From a virus (Duplodnaviria; Heunggongvirae; Uroviricota; Caudoviricetes), in the IMG/VR virus record IMGVR_UViG_2698536395_000029: a DNA stretch of 15,001 nucleotides, one strand, 5' to 3'. How positions within the stretch are numbered: the first letter of the stretch is position 1; each line of letters starts with the position of its first letter. The notes under the pieces were generated by a model that saw only the letters and a program-made list of their open reading frames with translations, was not told where the DNA came from and ran no database searches. Made by a program: the position numbers and the translations under genes. Below are positions 187-15,001 of the stretch, one piece after another.

Positions 187-211
187 GCAAAAAGTGCCAA
201 AAATCGCAAAA
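187..211. promoter_or_regulatory. Phased A-tracts (probable intrinsically bent DNA) in the left arm
   Basis: gcAAAAAgtgccAAAAAtcgcAAAAtg: A4-5 tracts recurring at roughly 10-bp spacing, as in att arms and IHF-bent regions. Confidence 0.4.
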
Positions 212-233
212 TGACTACACCAGTGACTACACC
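212..233. repeat. Tandem direct repeat TGACTACACC x2 (12-bp period); candidate integrase arm-type site
   Basis: Exact 10-mer at 212-221 and 224-233, about 80-100 bp inside the inferred left junction. Confidence 0.5.
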
Positions 234-6341: not shown

Positions 6342-7499
6342 TTAATCGTCGTCCTGTGGCAGTTCCAGAATCTTGATCGCGTTCGAATCCACCACGCCAC
6401 CGCCTAAATATTTCTGCGTGAAAATTTTGATGAAGCCCGGCTCTGTGAGGTTGTCCGGTCTGGTGCGAACACCTGTTTCGTGATCAACAATGTAGTAACC
6501 GCGTTTGAAGTCACCCAGGGCAATAACGTTATCAGGCATAAACTCCAGATATTCGACCGGAAGGCCCAGCAACGTATCAGGATCACCCGCCTGTAAACGG
6601 TCGCGCCAGATATAATCACCGTTCGCGTTCTTCACCTTCTGAAGTTTTGCCGCCGTCGTGGAGTTAACCACCCAGACCGCGTTTTTGCGGTATTTTTTAC
6701 GTAATGCAAATTTCAGGTCGATCAGCGGGTCCGCAGATGTCCACGCCAGAGATTCGGAAGGTTTAATTACCTGCAACGTACCAAAATCACGCTCTTTGTC
6801 GTTCTTCTCTGCACGGGGTACGGATAAAAAACCTTTTGCTTTTTTGTCACCGTCGCCCACAACCAGATCGCTTTCTTCGGTTTCCGTGAAGGTGTCGCCA
6901 ATCTCACCCGTCAGCCATGAAAGGATGTCCACATCGGAAAAATCCACGATTTCCTGTGTGGTGCGCGGGTACGCATAGACCGGATACAGCTTAATGCTCA
7001 CCTCGTTAATCTGCGGGGGGCTGGTCTGTTCGCGTGCCTTACCCTCTTCACCGTGGTTAACGGTCGCACCGCCAGCGGAAACAAGCTGCTTAAACTCGTT
7101 GCTGCTGATTTTCTTCACGGTACAGATGCGGCGCATGGTGGATTCATCCGCCAGCATTCGCATGATTTCGGTGTTCAGTTCAGGGATAACGGTATAACCA
7201 CCATCAGCGGGAACGCCTGTACTTAATGCGCGGGTTTCACCTGTCAGAATGTAGTTGCGTAGTTCTGCGGGGTCAGTGGTCTGACTGCTTTTACCTGGCT
7301 TGCTGCGCTCTTCGTCTGCAATGGCTTCAAGGCGGGAAATGTCTTTATCGAGGGATTCAGCTTTAGCGCGTAATTCGTCAAATTTTGCGCCCTCAGCATC
7401 GTTAAGACTGCGGTTTTCTTTTTCCGCGTTCTCCAGCATGTCGCGCATCTGATTTTTAATGGCGGTTTTCTGCTGGCGTAATTCGATTATTCTCGGCAT
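6342..7499 (-). CDS. Major capsid protein (HK97 fold) with N-terminal coiled-coil delta/scaffold-like region
   Basis: Start set at ATG 7499 (MPRIIELRQQ); the track's upstream start at 7547 is GTG. The charged, helical N-terminal ~100 aa followed by a ~280-aa body is the HK97 pattern. Confidence 0.85.
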   Translation of the reverse strand: MPRIIELRQQKTAIKNQMRDMLENAEKENRSLNDAEGAKFDELRAKAESLDKDISRLEAIADEERSKPGKSSQTTDPAELRNYILTGETRALSTGVPADGGYTVIPELNTEIMRMLADESTMRRICTVKKISSNEFKQLVSAGGATVNHGEEGKAREQTSPPQINEVSIKLYPVYAYPRTTQEIVDFSDVDILSWLTGEIGDTFTETEESDLVVGDGDKKAKGFLSVPRAEKNDKERDFGTLQVIKPSESLAWTSADPLIDLKFALRKKYRKNAVWVVNSTTAAKLQKVKNANGDYIWRDRLQAGDPDTLLGLPVEYLEFMPDNVIALGDFKRGYYIVDHETGVRTRPDNLTEPGFIKIFTQKYLGGGVVDSNAIKILELPQDDD

Positions 7500-7506
7500 A
7501 AAAAAA

Positions 7507-7536
7507 GTCCTGGGGTTAAGTAAGGAACTCCAGGAC
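7507..7536 (-). promoter_or_regulatory. Hairpin whose 3' arm contains the capsid Shine-Dalgarno, followed by T7 and the capsid ATG
   Basis: Minus strand reads GTCCTGG-(16 nt)-CCAGGAC-TTTTTTT-ATG; the AGGA of the putative SD sits inside the stem. Confidence 0.45.
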
Positions 7537-7713
7537 GCGGCAAACACTCAACCGTTTTTCATAAGGAAATCAGTAATCGCACCGATCGTTTTCCCGCCTG
7601 GTAATGAATATTGGCGAGCACATTAACAGGCGGGAAAGTGGCCCCAGCGTCCTGGCACCACGGGCGAGAATACTCATGATTCAGTTCGGGTAAAATATGC
7701 CGATCCTGTCAGT

Positions 7714-7739
7714 GAACAACGTGGAACAACCACGAACAA
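7714..7739 (+). promoter_or_regulatory. Phased hexamer array GAACAA-cgtg-GAACAA-ccac-GAACAA (10-bp period) upstream of the head operon
   Basis: Hexamers at 7714-7719, 7724-7729 and 7734-7739, about 215-240 bp upstream of the capsid ATG. Confidence 0.5.
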
Positions 7740-7750
7740 ATAATTTACAA

Positions 7751-7779
7751 AAAATGACAAAAAGCCGGATTGCTCCGGC
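7751..7779 (-). terminator. Rho-independent terminator after the 74-aa orphan gene
   Basis: Minus strand GCCGGA-gcaa-TCCGGC followed by TTTTTGTCATTTT; 12 nt after the stop at 7791. Confidence 0.6.
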
Positions 7780-7790
7780 TGTATGCGTGC

Positions 7791-8015
7791 TCAGTCCCTG
7801 ATCCCTTTCAGAAATTCTATCAATGCATCTATCTGTTCAGGATTTACCGCCAGCATTTCACCGGATAGAGCACATCTAACAAAACCATGCTGATCCTTTT
7901 CAATCAGTGCGCCCGTCTCCAGGAATGCGCGGTAATCATTGATGCTCATCGTCTCCATGTTGTCAGCATGGTATTTATCACGCTGTTTTAATATCTCATC
8001 AAATTTCATCGGCAT
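7791..8015 (-). CDS. Hypothetical protein (74 aa), orphan gene bracketed by two near-identical terminators
   Basis: ATG at 8015 with AGAGGA SD 8 nt upstream (MPMKFDEILKQ...); the track's longer start at 8093 has no SD. Acidic, no family recognised. Confidence 0.55.
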   Translation of the reverse strand: MPMKFDEILKQRDKYHADNMETMSINDYRAFLETGALIEKDQHGFVRCALSGEMLAVNPEQIDALIEFLKGIRD

Positions 8016-8110
8016 TGTTTTTTCCTCTGTTGTGTCTGTTTGTTTCAGATAGTAACTATGCCAGACCGTGACGAAAACCCGGTAATGCGCCATACCGTTT
8101 CAACTGGTGC

Positions 8111-8133
8111 AAAAAAAGCCGGATTTCTCCGGC
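8111..8133 (-). terminator. Rho-independent terminator after the PerC-like gene
   Basis: Minus strand GCCGGA-gaaa-TCCGGC followed by TTTTTTT; nearly identical to the hairpin at 7764-7779. Confidence 0.65.
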
Positions 8134-8140
8134 TGTGTGA

Positions 8141-8413
8141 TTAGCTGTCCTGGTAATTGCGCCATATTTCATCACCAGCACCATCTATCCCCATTTCGGC
8201 ATAAGTGCGATCGACTGCCTTTTTCAGGTCTCCGTAATTATCCGGTGGCTCCGGTGGCCTCTGTGCCTTCCTGCAACATTCCAGCCGTCGCATCGTAACC
8301 TGATGCCGTTCCTTGTCTGTCTCCACCAGCAGCATGACTTCACCCCATCGCGCCGCCGCCCTCCGGTAAAAGCCTTTCGCCTCGAGTTCTTCCGCTATGC
8401 GGTCATGTACCAT
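8141..8413 (-). CDS. PerC-family-like transcriptional regulator (90 aa)
   Basis: Start taken at ATG 8413 (MVHDRIAEEL) with GAGGGGG SD. The motif AEELEAKGFYRRAAARWGEV...MRRLEC resembles the PerC/Pch signature (A..LE..G.WRRAA..W). From memory. Confidence 0.5.
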   Translation of the reverse strand: MVHDRIAEELEAKGFYRRAAARWGEVMLLVETDKERHQVTMRRLECCRKAQRPPEPPDNYGDLKKAVDRTYAEMGIDGAGDEIWRNYQDS

Positions 8414-9109: not shown

Positions 9110-9158
9110 ATTTATTTTTACCCCCTCGTTTAAAAAGTTTTGAGTTGTGCCTCCCCTT

Positions 9159-9382
9159 GTCTACCTTATCTACCTTAGTGGCCCTCATACCAGTAATGGC
9201 GCGGCTTTCAGCTGGGTAGAGTGCTTTTATCCACTATCTACCCCGTGTCTACCTCCCTGTCTGATTCAGGTAAAATCAGGTAGAGAGGGTAGATAGTGGG
9301 TAGACAGTAAAAAAAGGCTATCTACCTAACTTAATGCACTGAATTAAATGTATTTTTCTTTACTCAGGTAGACAGGGTAGAC
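9159..9382. repeat. Iteron-type replication origin
   Basis: At least 11 copies of the 7-mer GGTAGA[C/T/G] or its complement in both orientations (9159, 9168, 9215, 9236, 9247, 9279, 9288, 9299, 9320, 9367, 9376), often at 9-11 bp spacing, flanking an AT-rich stretch at 9330-9366. Lies directly downstream of the primase stop. Confidence 0.75.
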
Positions 9383-9397
9383 AGCAATTACAAAAAA

Positions 9398-11152
9398 TTA
9401 TAAAAACGCGTCGCACTCGTCTGTTGTTATTGCGTTAGTCTGCGTTACTCCCTTAACTTTCCGCGTAATATATTCATGTCCGTAAACTTTCGCGGCTGGC
9501 TTCATAGCCTTGCCAAAGTCATTTACGTTTAGCGGTTTGCTCCTGCCTGCGTACGCCATAAACGCCAGATAGACGCGGTAAAGGCTGTTTCTGGTCGTGT
9601 ACTTCACTGAATCGCCACCGCCGCCCATCATCAGGCCGCGTGCTTCCTCCAGAAAATTCAGGAACTGGCAAAACTCAATAACCGGATCCGTCTGTTGCTT
9701 TATTGCCAGAGCTTCATCACCGTCACGCTGTTCCAGTAGTAAAGCCCGTGCCTTCTCAGGGTCGGTAAAGTTCGCCAGCAATCGGCGGATAATGACAGGG
9801 ATTTCAGCCGCGATCTTTTCCGGTAGCTCCCTGTCTTTTTCGGCCTCACTGACGATATTGTCGAAACGGAAAATCACGCGACGACGTGCCACACCTCCGG
9901 CCCGTTCGGTGAATATCATCGGGTTATTGTTGGTCGCCAGCACCACCGCCCTGATTACAGCCGTGAAACGCTTTTCGTATTTCGGGTTAATTTCCACGGG
10001 GTCACCGCCCGTGATTTTCTTGATGCCCGTTCCTTCGCCTGTATATTTCGGCTGGTCAGCCAGGACGATAAGACGACTCCCGACAACCTGCGCACGTCCA
10101 CCAGCATCATCAAGCGATGTCATTTCAGCGCTTACCGTGTTCTGTTTCCCTGCCAGAAGGCTGGCTATGTGCGTGAATGTACTTTTACCGCTCCCGCCGT
10201 CTCCGGTGGCCTCAATAAACATCTGCCAGTCGTACCGGTTCGCCATAATCATGTACAGCGCGGCACATATACGCATCATCTTGCGCGGGTCTTTTCCGGC
10301 TGCGTGCTCAAGCCATTTATGAAAGTTTGGCGCGTTATCGCGGATGTTCTCCCCTGGTGCTGGTGGCGTGTACTCAATGCCGTTGTGCGTGGTGATCCAG
10401 TTCTCCGGCGTGTGCGGGGAAAATTCCCCCGTTTTCAGGTCAAGCGCACCATTGGCGAACGGCAGCAAATCGCCGGACGGCTCGCCCATTGGTTCGGCAA
10501 TAACTTTTAACGCTTCCACGGCGTTATTGATTACGCGCTTGCTGAAAGTGGCCCTGTGCTCTGAATAGATCGCCACCATTTCGCGGCTAAGTTCCATTGT
10601 GCTGACCGGACACCATACCCCGCCGCGCCATACGTGAACGATTTCACTTTCAGGATGTACGCAAACGCCATCAAAGCGATCGGCAAGCAGCTGCGCGCGC
10701 TCACTGTCCGCCATCTGCGAAAGTTGCGCCTTTTGCTTTACCGGAAGCTCAATGACCAGACCATCAGAAAGATTCTGGCGCTCACGAGCCAGATATTCGC
10801 GCCAGTTCTCCACCTTCTGACCGTGCATACCATCAGGGTAAAAATTTGCATCCTGTACGCCTGCCGCCGCCAGCTTCTGACCAATCGCCTTTATCATTAC
10901 TGGCGCAAGATATCCGGCCCTGAATATGCGCACGGATTTTCTGCCTTCCGGCACAATTTGCAGCTTATCCAGTTCGGATAACTGCTGCTCCCCAAGCCAC
11001 ACAGGAGGCTCATTATCTCCGGCCATACGCGCGTCATGTTCCTGCCATTGTTTTGCGTGTGACCAGGCATCACTACCCGCAAAAATAATGACTTCTGTTT
11101 CTTTGTGTTTTATGCCGCGTGACTGCTGTTTTACGTTCGGTGCCAGTTTCAT
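9398..11152 (-). CDS. Primase/helicase replication protein (P4-alpha-like; D5-type NTPase C-terminal domain)
   Basis: 584 aa; Walker A GDGGSGKST at ~residue 318 with the surrounding D5/P4-family helicase context; N-terminal primase-like region; iteron origin immediately downstream. Confidence 0.85.
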   Translation of the reverse strand: MKLAPNVKQQSRGIKHKETEVIIFAGSDAWSHAKQWQEHDARMAGDNEPPVWLGEQQLSELDKLQIVPEGRKSVRIFRAGYLAPVMIKAIGQKLAAAGVQDANFYPDGMHGQKVENWREYLARERQNLSDGLVIELPVKQKAQLSQMADSERAQLLADRFDGVCVHPESEIVHVWRGGVWCPVSTMELSREMVAIYSEHRATFSKRVINNAVEALKVIAEPMGEPSGDLLPFANGALDLKTGEFSPHTPENWITTHNGIEYTPPAPGENIRDNAPNFHKWLEHAAGKDPRKMMRICAALYMIMANRYDWQMFIEATGDGGSGKSTFTHIASLLAGKQNTVSAEMTSLDDAGGRAQVVGSRLIVLADQPKYTGEGTGIKKITGGDPVEINPKYEKRFTAVIRAVVLATNNNPMIFTERAGGVARRRVIFRFDNIVSEAEKDRELPEKIAAEIPVIIRRLLANFTDPEKARALLLEQRDGDEALAIKQQTDPVIEFCQFLNFLEEARGLMMGGGGDSVKYTTRNSLYRVYLAFMAYAGRSKPLNVNDFGKAMKPAAKVYGHEYITRKVKGVTQTNAITTDECDAFL

Positions 11153-11448
11153 TTTTTACCCCTGAATACGTTAAGCATCTTTTTTATTTCCTGAATATTG
11201 GCGCGTGCTTTCTTCCTGCTGGTTGGTTTACTGCGGGGCGCTGCCTGTACCAGAGAAAAATCACGCCGAAACTGATAAACAGGCATCACGCAATCATATT
11301 CGTAGCCTTCACGGCGGTAGGTTACGCGCCGTTCTTCCACGCCCTTAATCATTACCGTGCCGCCGTACTGGTCGCGGTAAATATCACCGCGCGTAAATTT
11401 AGGGTGAGTGTTGCCACTGGCAGTTAAGCCAGAATATTTAAGTTTCAT
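11149..11448 (-). CDS. Hypothetical basic protein (99 aa)
   Basis: ATG at 11448 with GGAG SD; stop overlaps the primase ATG (ATGA). Confidence 0.55.
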   Translation of the reverse strand: MKLKYSGLTASGNTHPKFTRGDIYRDQYGGTVMIKGVEERRVTYRREGYEYDCVMPVYQFRRDFSLVQAAPRSKPTSRKKARANIQEIKKMLNVFRGKK

Positions 11449-13220: not shown

Positions 13221-13409
13221 TTAATGAACTGCCTTGCAGCTATCCTTCCAGGCCAGAACCTCGGATAAAGACCAGCCAACGGAACGACCGCCAAGTTTAC
13301 GACGTGATGGGAATTGTCCGGCCTTTTCCAGGCGGTAGCGGCATGAGCGGCTAAGGCCTGTTAGCTTTTCGCATTCTTTTTCACGTATAAACCGATCAGT
13401 GCTTAACAC
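13221..13409 (-). CDS. alpA: AlpA-family transcriptional regulator / excisionase-like HTH protein
   Basis: 62 aa; LTGLSRSCRYRLEKAGQFPSRRKLGGRSVGWSLSEVLAW matches the AlpA signature (TGLSRST.YR....G.FP.P.KLG.R.V.W...EV..W). Start is GTG at 13409 with AAGGGGG SD. Confidence 0.85.
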   Translation of the reverse strand: MLSTDRFIREKECEKLTGLSRSCRYRLEKAGQFPSRRKLGGRSVGWSLSEVLAWKDSCKAVH

Positions 13410-13568
13410 TATTGCCCCCTTTCGTTTCTTAAAGAGTTATTTCGTGTTCTATTGCGTTGGGATGTGTCTGATTGTGTCAGGATGATTCAGAGTTGGCAAA
13501 TGTTGAGGTCGTATGGTTTACAGAAACAGGAATAATCAGGATAAAATCATTTAAATTCATGTTAATAC

Positions 13569-13600
13569 AAAGGCATAAAATATTGTTTCATGCCTTTTTT
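13569..13600 (+). terminator. Terminator-like hairpin on the plus strand in the int-alpA intergenic region
   Basis: AAAGGCAT-(13-nt loop)-ATGCCTTT followed by TTTTTTCTC; no plus-strand gene upstream, so function unclear. Confidence 0.3.
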
Positions 13601-13692
13601 CTCGCCATTTAAAGAGTGATTCGCTAGTGTATAAAAAACCAGTAACACATTAAAAATCAGCCACTTATAAATCCGTACACTTTTTCGCCTCT

Positions 13693-13737
13693 TGTTCGTA
13701 GTTGTTCCGCATTGTTGCTCATTGTTGCATGTTGTAT
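13693..13737 (-). promoter_or_regulatory. Array of four to five TTGTT[C/G] hexamers at exact 10-bp phasing (minus strand GAACAA/CAACAA)
   Basis: Hexamers at 13693, 13703, 13713, 13723 and a degenerate one at 13732; about 285-330 bp upstream of alpA and 50-90 bp downstream of the int stop. Confidence 0.55.
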
Positions 13738-13750
13738 CTGTTCGCATATC

Positions 13751-13766
13751 CAGTATGCGCATACTG
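13751..13766. promoter_or_regulatory. 16-bp perfect palindrome CAGTATGCGCATACTG
   Basis: Exact dyad symmetry 18 bp downstream of the int stop; no U-run on the int strand, so more likely an operator than a terminator. Confidence 0.45.
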
Positions 13767-13783: not shown

Positions 13784-15001
13784 TTATTTTCTTCTGGCTA
13801 CTGGTAGCGTGGTTACGTTTTCATGTGTTCCCGCCAGTATCCCTAACCGCTCCGTCCACATATCCAGCGCATTGCGTTTAGCATCCAGATAACGGGAATG
13901 ATTATAAACTCGCTGCATTCCTGGCATCTGATGACCTGTAAGCTGCTCCACGACATGCGGATCAACGCCTAAATCGTTCAGCATGGTTGTAAAGGTGCGC
14001 CGGATGTCATGCAGTGACCAGTGAGGATGATTAAGCCTCCTGTGCGCTAATCTTCCATACTGCGATACGCTGGCCTCCTGTTTCGCTTCCCCCAGCAATA
14101 AGCCCGTGTGCCTGTTCTGCTCCACCAGCTGCGTGACGAACGGCAGGATCGCTTCCGGTATGGGCCGGAATATTGCGACCTTCGTTTTGCTGTGCTCCTT
14201 CGGAACGGTCCATAGCATTTCCGTAAAATCCCACTCCCCGATCTCCGATAGCCTCAGTTCTACCGTCCTGGCTCCGAAGACAATCAGGAGGCGGATTAAC
14301 GCGACGTAGTAAGGGGAAAATATTTTTTTGTCCAGTGCCTGCAATAATTCGCCAAGTTCTTTGTTACTTAAGACACGTTCGCTTATATCCGGTTTTTTCC
14401 CAACGTCCGCCACGTTCAGATCGTCCAGAACGTTGCTGATTGCATAGCGCCGCCTACGGCAGAACTTAAGCGCCTGTTTGCACGCCTGTAGCACGAATCC
14501 GGCAGTAACAGGCGTTCGCTTTGCCACCTGGTCAAAACAGGCCAGCCAGTGCCGTAGCTCGCATTTATCCAGCGGCATAGCACCAATCTGCTGTATTACG
14601 TGATTATTAAGTCGCCTTTTCAGGGCGATATAATCCACGCGGTTTTCCTTTACGTAATACTCAAGCCAGTAGGTGAGCGCATCGCCAACCGTTACGGGCT
14701 TTAACGCTTCCTGTACGGTGTAATTCATCTCATGACGTGGATTTTTCCCCTCAGCCAGCCATGTGCGACACTGTGCGGCTTTTTCCCTGGCTGCTTTCAG
14801 GCTCAGATCAGGATAACTTCCCAGCTTAATGCGTTCGGGTCGTGTCTCCCTTCCCGTTCCGGCCCTGTATGTGAAATACCAGGTCAATTTCCCTGATGTT
14901 AAATATTTCACGCTCAGGTTTCCGCCATCACTATAAAACGTGTTTTTCTCCGCTGGCTTACCATGAAGTTTCCTTAGCAAGGTATCGCTCAGTTTGTTCA
15001 T
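13784..15001 (-). CDS. int: Tyrosine integrase (P4/CP4-57-type, N-terminal arm-binding domain plus catalytic domain)
   Basis: 405 aa; ATG at 15001, the window edge. The N-terminus (LSDTLLRKLHGKPAEK...YSDGGNLSVKY...WYFTYR) follows the P4-type arm-binding pattern; the C-terminus has HDIRRT and RVYNHSRY consistent with the H-x-x-R and catalytic Tyr. Confidence 0.9.
   Translation of the reverse strand: MNKLSDTLLRKLHGKPAEKNTFYSDGGNLSVKYLTSGKLTWYFTYRAGTGRETRPERIKLGSYPDLSLKAAREKAAQCRTWLAEGKNPRHEMNYTVQEALKPVTVGDALTYWLEYYVKENRVDYIALKRRLNNHVIQQIGAMPLDKCELRHWLACFDQVAKRTPVTAGFVLQACKQALKFCRRRRYAISNVLDDLNVADVGKKPDISERVLSNKELGELLQALDKKIFSPYYVALIRLLIVFGARTVELRLSEIGEWDFTEMLWTVPKEHSKTKVAIFRPIPEAILPFVTQLVEQNRHTGLLLGEAKQEASVSQYGRLAHRRLNHPHWSLHDIRRTFTTMLNDLGVDPHVVEQLTGHQMPGMQRVYNHSRYLDAKRNALDMWTERLGILAGTHENVTTLPVARRK

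Follow-up and report, generated by a model that had tools for sequence, protein, structure and literature searches.

Recombination directionality factors (RDFs; excisionases) bind head-to-tail to tandem repeats spaced one helical turn apart, and for Apl, Cox and Vis such arrays are found at promoters as well as at att sites (PMC7498355). The operators of these three proteins consist of direct repeats 10–11 bp apart, with ~5–7 per array, on which binding is cooperative and the DNA is bent (PMC7498355); Cox can in addition activate a promoter, PLL of P4 (reference cited in PMC7498355). TorI of KplE1 is an RDF that also regulates transcription, and its attL sites, which are of a GTTCG type, are interspersed with Int arm-type sites in the int-proximal arm and include a block of three spaced by 2 nt (PMC2951348).

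For PICIs, the literature on AlpA covers self-activation, excision and helper-phage induction. In the prototype island EcCICFT073, AlpA expressed alone from pBAD activates a PalpA-lacZ fusion in DH5alpha, its overexpression triggers excision and replication, and it has no effect on Pint-lacZ (PMC6092414). Overexpression of alpA without a helper phage has also been used for production of EcCIEDL933 capsids. Our search of the literature, which was incomplete in coverage, found no operator sequence for the AlpA of PICIs.

The window analysed here, by which we mean the whole 15,001-nucleotide stretch of DNA, is a phage satellite of 15 kb that is integrated within the E. coli gene tqsA. Apart from one base, its sequence matches NZ_AP027170.1 (2219696–2234695) at 100% identity, and fragments of tqsA are annotated on either side of the element, with the 5' fragment at the left junction. 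The gene set (int, alpA, a primase-type replication gene and HK97-type packaging genes encoding capsid, protease, portal, connectors, HNH, TerS and TerL, within ~15 kb and with no tail or lysis genes) matches that described for the EcCIEDL933 family of capsid-forming PICIs (cf-PICIs; bioRxiv 10.1101/2022.09.08.507074), and the head region is 99% identical to that of an O157:H7 element. Judged by its gene content, the element is an EcCIEDL933-like capsid-forming PICI. All main genes are carried on the minus strand. Their order is a P4-type tyrosine integrase with an N-terminal arm-binding domain (Arm-DNA-bind_3; 13784–15001, with the start codon 12 bp past the window end), alpA (13221–13409), several small ORFs including a DUF4222 gene, a D5-type primase (9398–11152), origin-like repeats, ssb and perC, two near-identical terminators, and the HK97-type packaging operon. 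The latter begins with the major capsid gene (6342–7499, with its ATG at 7499) and continues through protease, portal, head completion, connector, HNH, TerS and TerL.

Several observations on individual genes are recorded here. The TerL gene (1159–2820) is an uninterrupted ORF of 553 aa, and a near-identical RefSeq record that is one base shorter annotates a frameshift. The DUF4222 protein (11149–11448, minus strand; 99 aa, with RGD at residues 20–22) is an apparent homologue of RgdR (ECs1581), the product of OI-51 that regulates motility and LEE type III secretion (PMC3378721). In the island of strain PE164 (L001), an int-alpA module identical to that of the window is joined to a RepA-type helicase replication gene and a lambda-like capsid and decoration module, a mixture that shows modular exchange among islands at the shared tqsA site.

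The intergenic region between int and alpA contains an array of five hexamers (TTGTTC, TTGTTC, TTGTTG, TTGTTG and TTGTAT; 13692–13737, plus strand) in a strict 10-bp register, which on the minus strand, that of the genes, reads as GAACAA-type. The preliminary description of this DNA had reported four TTGTT[C/G] hexamers here, from 13693 onwards; the hexamers and their register are present, with starts one base lower, at 13692, 13702, 13712 and 13722. The fifth, degenerate copy that it had noted is the TTGTAT at 13732, in register, and an off-register CTGTTC follows at 13738. Also borne out were its further arrays upstream of the head operon and in the left arm of the element. The former consists of GAACAA at 7714, 7724 and 7734 on the plus strand, and thus of three TTGTTC units (7714–7739) on the minus, coding strand. 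The latter, in the int-distal att arm (251–276), reads AAACAA (251), GAACAA (261) and ACACAA (271) on the plus strand; its minus-strand units are TTGTGT, TTGTTC and TTGTTT. Both of these arrays thus run opposite to the one between int and alpA. Four further units (TTGTTC, TTGTTT, TTGTAG and TTGTGC, minus strand) make up a fourth array in the right, int-proximal att arm, ~70 bp past the window end, with the start codon of int on one side and the right att core on the other (L002 16567–16602, corresponding to approximately 15068–15103 in window numbering).

It is the phasing of these hexamers, not their number, that is unusual. Whereas the lone hexamer shows no enrichment (20 copies in the window, 20.8 expected), the pair TTGTTS-N4-TTGTTS with at most one mismatch is matched six times against an expectation of 0.38, a count that none of 200 shuffles of the window reached. 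Runs of at least three TTGT at exactly 10 bp were observed three times, versus 0.001 expected per window from 1000 Markov shuffles, and within the window they are confined to the int-alpA, head-operon and left-arm sites. A PWM built from 36 units, with a consensus of approximately c-g-TTGTTC-c, gave three-unit scores of 27–33 at these three sites, compared with a null 95th percentile of 14.5.

Proceeding from int toward alpA, the array is reached 46 bp past the stop codon of int, and ~190 bp downstream of it comes the best PalpA candidate of sigma-70 type (13471–13499, minus strand), which comprises a −35 element TTGCCA (13499–13494), a 17-bp spacer and a −10 element CACAAT (13476–13471). When the int-alpA spacers of related islands are aligned, this −35 is invariant and the 17-bp spacing is preserved despite a 10-bp indel in the O157/O103 variants. 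An A-tract/hairpin/T-tract element that resembles a bidirectional terminator is positioned between the array and the candidate promoter (13571–13606). Its hairpin is conserved in the alignment of six spacer variants, with a minus-strand folding energy of −13.8 kcal/mol (z −3.5) in the window and of −14.8 kcal/mol (z −4.5) for the CFT073 counterpart. In the array itself, the same alignment shows invariant AACAA pentamers separated by four bases that vary, which is the pattern expected of protein contact points.

Other features of this spacer were considered and set aside. Two 66-aa ORFs, one on the minus strand (13562–13762) and one on the plus strand, overlie the array; their sole Pfam match is sub-threshold, RefSeq gives no annotation, and their frame is broken by 1-nt indels between variants. 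A perfect 16-bp palindrome, CAGTATGCGCATACTG (13751–13766), is situated between the int stop codon and the array and is conserved in the O157, PKF11 and O103 variants; it was rejected as an operator, being unconserved in CFT073 and E300082. An antisense promoter running from the array toward int was likewise rejected, as the plus strand has no conserved −10. We also observed a series of degenerate units in 10-bp register (TCGTGT, TTGCGT, ATGTGT, TTGTGT and ATGATT; 13442–13487, plus strand) that overlies both the −10 of the candidate alpA promoter and the 5' UTR. These units share their modulo-10 register with the main array 220 bp away, and taken alone are not significant by PWM.

The head-operon array lies 215 bp upstream of the capsid ATG and directly downstream of an intrinsic terminator (7763–7780, minus strand) which, from its position, would insulate the operon against upstream transcription. 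Its last, promoter-proximal unit coincides with the −35 of a weak candidate promoter (7692–7719, minus strand), composed of TTGTTC (7719–7714), a 16-bp spacer and a −10 element TATTTT (7697–7692). No sigma-70 promoter of consensus quality was found in 7480–8160, and dependence on an activator would fit with this; contact between such an activator and RNA polymerase at the −35 is plausible from the arrangement.

Two side observations concern the same region. The terminator belongs to a pair that are 93% identical (7759–7785 and 8113–8139, minus strand), each of the form AGCCGGAG-n-AATCCGGCT followed by a T-run, which bracket a small ORF (7791–8015). Just upstream of the ribosome-binding site of that ORF is a marginal two-unit site, TTGTGT-CTGT-TTGTTT (8027–8046, plus strand), which scores 19.1 by PWM (null 95th percentile, 18.5). 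Close relatives retain this site and the more distant element L022 does not.

Comparison of the left and right arms placed one copy of the att core, TGCTGTTAT, at 129–137, at the junction with the 5' tqsA fragment, and the other at ~16688 of L002. In addition to its phased array, each arm contains two copies of a 12-bp direct repeat with the consensus A[A/G]TGACTACACC: AATGACTACACC followed by AGTGACTACACC in the left arm (210–233, plus strand), mirrored by two copies of AGTGACTACACC in the int-proximal arm (L002 16536–16559). The two arms thus present the same composite in the same orientation, namely a doublet and then, 17–27 bp on, a phased array, the arrays being ~85–130 bp away from the att core. 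The array falls between doublet and core in the int-proximal arm and outside the doublet in the distal arm. Beyond the left arm the doublet has no further occurrence in the window. Its reverse complement includes AGTCACT, as do the arm-type sites of lambda, and its motif varies by integrase lineage; on these grounds the doublet appears a likelier arm-type site for the integrase than does the phased array. As a separate observation, phased A-tracts (CAAAAA at ~188, 198 and 207) occupy positions 186–211, between the att core and the doublet, and suggest that this segment of the left arm is intrinsically bent.

Conservation of the arrays in related elements, for which the preliminary description had proposed a motif check across homologues, was found in seven islands at three integration sites. 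These related E. coli islands, EcCICFT073 among them, are integrated at tqsA, phoQ-roxA or smrA-abgR, and all carry an array of three, five or six units in the int-alpA spacer (six in EcCICFT073, three in strain E300082) together with arrays in both arms; the left-arm array occupies the matching place in 7/7 of the elements examined. Megablast homology between the window island and EcCICFT073 ends just before the int-alpA array, and EcCICFT073 still has six perfectly phased units there. The head-operon array is found in every examined element that bears this HK97-type module, in degenerate form in L023, and is missing from those PICIs whose capsid and decoration genes form a lambda-like module (CFT073, PE164 and O157 SS52). 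In L022, which represents another int/alpA lineage (integrase 68% and AlpA 67% identical to those of the window), the intergenic region upstream of the capsid gene is ~78% identical to that of the window, with the three TTGTTC units as its best-conserved block, and TTGTTC arrays are present in the int-proximal arm as well.

In about five distant Int/AlpA lineages (L022, L023, L147, L149 and L151), an int-proximal phased array of TGTTC, GTTCG or TGTTTC is followed by a 12-bp doublet. Both arm elements are also present in L020 and L021, where the doublet is the closer of the two to int, and this lineage has no TTGT array between int and alpA. The most divergent integrase, that of L149 (29% identical), is accompanied by a wholly different doublet (two copies of TGGTCCAAA), while its AlpA is 64% identical and its array consists of two CTGTTTC units. 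These comparisons suggest that arrays follow AlpA and doublets follow Int, on few data and mainly those of L149, since most other lineages conserve both motifs. Covariation inside the close family is uninformative, as Int (85–91% identical) and AlpA (92–95%) are both conserved.

Broader scans delimited the distribution of the motif. Exact matches to three phased TTGTTC units occur at 120 loci in viral contigs, of which 13 encode an AlpA relative, all of them kin of this island; the rest are unrelated. A scan of genome contigs with an AlpA alignment retrieved mostly alpA genes without a preceding int and with a different upstream architecture, and a simple scan of CP4-57 of K-12, the namesake AlpA element, revealed no obvious phased arrays. 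Distinct features were noted upstream of alpA in L006–L012, L022, L023 and L151. One or two GTGATATCAC-type palindromes are located within ~100 bp of the gene, and a hairpin and T-run just before the ATG embeds CGAAC-N5-CGAAC (or its reverse). The arrangement suggests another conserved mode of control, again with GAAC repeats 10 bp apart.

The gene beside int, alpA, encodes a 62-aa protein of the winged-helix excisionase family (13221–13409, minus strand; PF05930, E 5e-18) that matches PHROG 2790, 'excisionase and transcriptional regulator', and that is the sole excisionase-like protein in the element according to Pfam and PHROG scans. Its AlphaFold model (pLDDT 86.8) is a winged helix-turn-helix, and the best fold matches in the PDB are excisionases: GIsul2 Xis (TM 0.83–0.90), RdfS, Pukovnik Xis and TorI. 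We consider it probable, reasoning from sequence and predicted fold, that the arrays are head-to-tail operators for AlpA, and that AlpA has an RDF role in the arms and a regulatory one at alpA and the HK97-type head operon. The arrays have the direct-repeat form of RDF operators (3–6 units at exactly 10 bp, head-to-tail inside each array), those in the arms adjoin candidate integrase arm-type doublets in a layout that is repeated in other lineages, and others stand at the alpA and head control regions.

Published reporter data bear on the same question. The primers of the PalpA fusion map to L004 15712–16167; activation by AlpA is a property of this fragment as a whole, which spans the entire six-unit array of EcCICFT073. 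Array units are the sole 8-mers that the CFT073 PalpA fragment has in common with both att arms. Production of capsids by alpA overexpression is what AlpA control of the head operon would predict. The Pint-lacZ fragment, as mapped here, includes the right-arm array, and the inaction of AlpA at Pint despite that array is neutral to mildly negative for the operator reading. Counting against it is the presence of arrays in both arms, with that of the left arm outside the doublet, as typical RDF sites are confined to one arm. The preliminary description had suggested that a single element-encoded factor, with AlpA named first, links alpA, the head genes and an att-proximal site. Core conservation, the arrays in both arms, the excisionase fold and the reporter fragment fit this putative link; the RHH protein, which had been put forward as a candidate too, need not be invoked.

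If AlpA is the binder, the details of its binding, of DNA bending and of promoter mechanics can be sketched by inference from other RDFs. One AlpA monomer would occupy each TTGTTC-type unit, as in those proteins, and monomers would stack head-to-tail at one helical turn, bending the DNA cooperatively. In the arms, an AlpA filament beside Int-bound 12-bp doublets would shape the excisive intasome, the standard role of an RDF. In the int-alpA spacer, the five-unit array would act as a high-affinity site through which AlpA raises its own transcription, and at the head operon the three-unit array, which abuts or overlaps a weak −35 past a terminator, would allow AlpA to switch on the capsid genes. 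One helper-induced protein would in this way couple excision, a positive-feedback switch and packaging. Given that the int-alpA array is ~190 bp from the −35, with a hairpin in between and in inverted orientation, simple class I/II activation is unfit as an explanation for all sites. Options at this array include bending or looping toward the weak, in-register TTGTGT-like units over the −10 region (13442–13487), a second weak promoter closer to the array, or assistance to polymerase in passing the 13606–13571 hairpin.

The system would then resemble those of 186 Apl, P2 Cox, HP1 Cox and P4 Vis, in each of which a small DNA-binding excision protein is associated with direct-repeat arrays at att sites and promoters. 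It differs from Apl and Cox in having arrays in both att arms and a TTGTTC unit, and Apl and Cox are not AlpA-family sequences. Moreover, Apl and Cox mainly repress face-to-face early promoters, whereas AlpA is known to activate its own gene, and a capsid (late) operon is its apparent target. Lambda Xis on X1-X1.5-X2 offers a further parallel to the operator reading, with winged-helix monomers bound head-to-tail every 10 bp, beside an Int arm-type site. The sequences are also alike: Xis sites contain TGTTGTG, the lambda arm-type AGTCACT resembles the doublet of the window, and in the lambda P arm an AGTCACT-type site stands next to the Xis sites TATGTTGTGTTTT and TATGTAGTCTGTTTT. Lambda nevertheless has three Xis sites, in one arm only and without promoter arrays, and the relative orientation of its Xis and arm-type sites is different. 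For KplE1, the GTTCG-type core of the TorI sites is close to the TGTTC(G) unit found here, and TorI, which is among the fold matches of AlpA, resembles it in combining an RDF role with transcriptional regulation. TorI represses PintS, while AlpA of EcCICFT073 left Pint unaffected, and we know of no TorI arrays at distant operons.

Lambda CII, with sites of the form TTGC-N6-TTGC, had been offered by the preliminary description as the analogous design. Its sites, like the arrays, are direct repeats 10 bp apart; they straddle the −35, and the proximal unit of the head-operon array lies at a candidate −35. CII, however, is a tetrameric HTH protein that uses two tetramer repeats per promoter, whereas the arrays have 3–6 units and occur in the att arms as well. 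Furthermore, the unit here is TTGTTC, Pfam and PHROG scans detected no CII-like protein, and only the head site touches a candidate −35. The closest analogue is rather the RDF/regulator class represented by lambda Xis, 186 Apl, P2 Cox, P4 Vis and KplE1 TorI. The AlpA antiterminator of P. aeruginosa, which has its Pfam family name in common with the protein here, is a winged-helix protein that exerts positive control over terminator-containing operons (PMC7969949). Its binding element differs, being a single GGGACG-N5-GGTA between −35 and −10, whereas the window arrays are not inside promoter spacers; matches to that element in the window are at chance level. The antiterminator design also places an intrinsic terminator downstream of the element, whereas the terminator at the head operon is upstream of the array; a hairpin does lie downstream of the int-alpA array, where antitermination may operate.

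The arrays might instead be bound by another product of the island, such as the DUF4222/RgdR homologue, PerC, the Icd-like 'repressor' domain or the YlcI/YnfO-family protein, or by a host response regulator of the OmpR/PhoB type, for example TorR. Winged-helix response regulators also typically use direct repeats 10–11 bp apart, and the DUF4222 and Icd-like genes are found in all related elements. The tor box of TorR is CTGTTCATAT, and certain units of other lineages read CTGTTCAT; matches to the tor box in the window, however, are at chance level. PerC is countered by strain 300709 (L017), which keeps the arrays without an annotated PerC gene. No candidate of this group accounts for arrays in both att arms, and AlpA alone is enough for the reporter response. 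DNA binding by RgdR was only non-specific (PMC3378721). We regard recognition by any of these proteins as unlikely.

Quite unlikely, too, is a two-step version of the AlpA reading, in which an excisionase-type protein of the helper would fire alpA at the AlpA operators and AlpA would then take over, closing a positive loop, driving excision and directly turning on the captured HK97 capsid operon. Were this true, operators of a recombination site would have been re-used as a satellite-wide regulatory code, with the int-alpA array as the entry point for helper induction.

In a third alternative, the N-terminal domain of the P4-type integrase would recognise the phased hexamers as its arm-type sites and would bind at the alpA and head regions as well. 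The integrase does carry an Arm-DNA-bind_3 domain, each att arm has an array no more than ~130 bp from the core, and adjacent direct repeats are possible for arm-type sites. The arm-type role, however, is filled by the separate 12-bp doublet beside each arm array, which varies with integrase lineage, and two of the arrays (int-alpA and head operon) lie far from att and not in the arms; together these two points make an integrase arm-site assignment unlikely. The array motif also persists in L149 despite an integrase of 29% identity, and AlpA elicited its response from the PalpA fragment without Int. All told, we hold this assignment to be very unlikely.

The int-alpA array could alternatively be the docking site of a helper-phage protein, for example a helper excisionase, that fires alpA, with AlpA acting elsewhere. 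Helper phages induce transcription of alpA through a phage factor (PMC6092414), and P2 Cox provides a precedent in its activation of the P4 late promoter (cited in PMC7498355). The lambda Xis sites given above, moreover, include TTGT-type cores. Against this, diverse helpers induce the islands (lambda and phi80 for EcCICFT073, HK106 and HK446 for EcCIEDL933), and with helpers so different one array is unlikely to suit all of their excisionases. Docking by a helper protein would leave unexplained why identical arrays recur in the att arms and at the head operon of the island itself, and AlpA activates the PalpA fragment without any phage. Docking of this kind strikes us as highly improbable.

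Finally, the idea that no protein binds the repeats, and that they are a product of chance, of replication slippage or of intrinsic DNA curvature, is scarcely credible: the lone hexamer is indeed not over-represented in the window, but three arrays occur where 0.001 are expected, and their cores are conserved across lineages and integration sites while the spacers have diverged. The arrays were also rejected as replication iterons, since the repeat set of the origin region, GGTAGACAG / CCTTATCTA at 9155–9385 past the primase gene, differs, and the TTGTTC arrays are located elsewhere. That region, which begins just past the primase stop codon, contains tandem CCTTATCTA and TCTACCTCCCTG units and inverted GGTAGACAG(G) copies; these are probably the iterons of a replication origin, unrelated to the TTGTTC arrays.

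The AlpA operator reading places the arrays in a well-known RDF/regulator design, of which they are apparently an undescribed example. AlpA is the master switch of Gram-negative PICIs and cf-PICIs, and a conserved operator (TTGTTC in 10-bp register, 3–6 units, at four places) predicts an AlpA regulon and supplies fragments for footprinting and mutagenesis. The phased array together with the 12-bp doublet, flanking the core on both sides, provides a signature for delimiting att sites in this satellite family. For cf-PICIs, the operator suggests direct control of the HK97-type packaging module by AlpA, a link that the lambda-type capsid modules of sister islands would lack.
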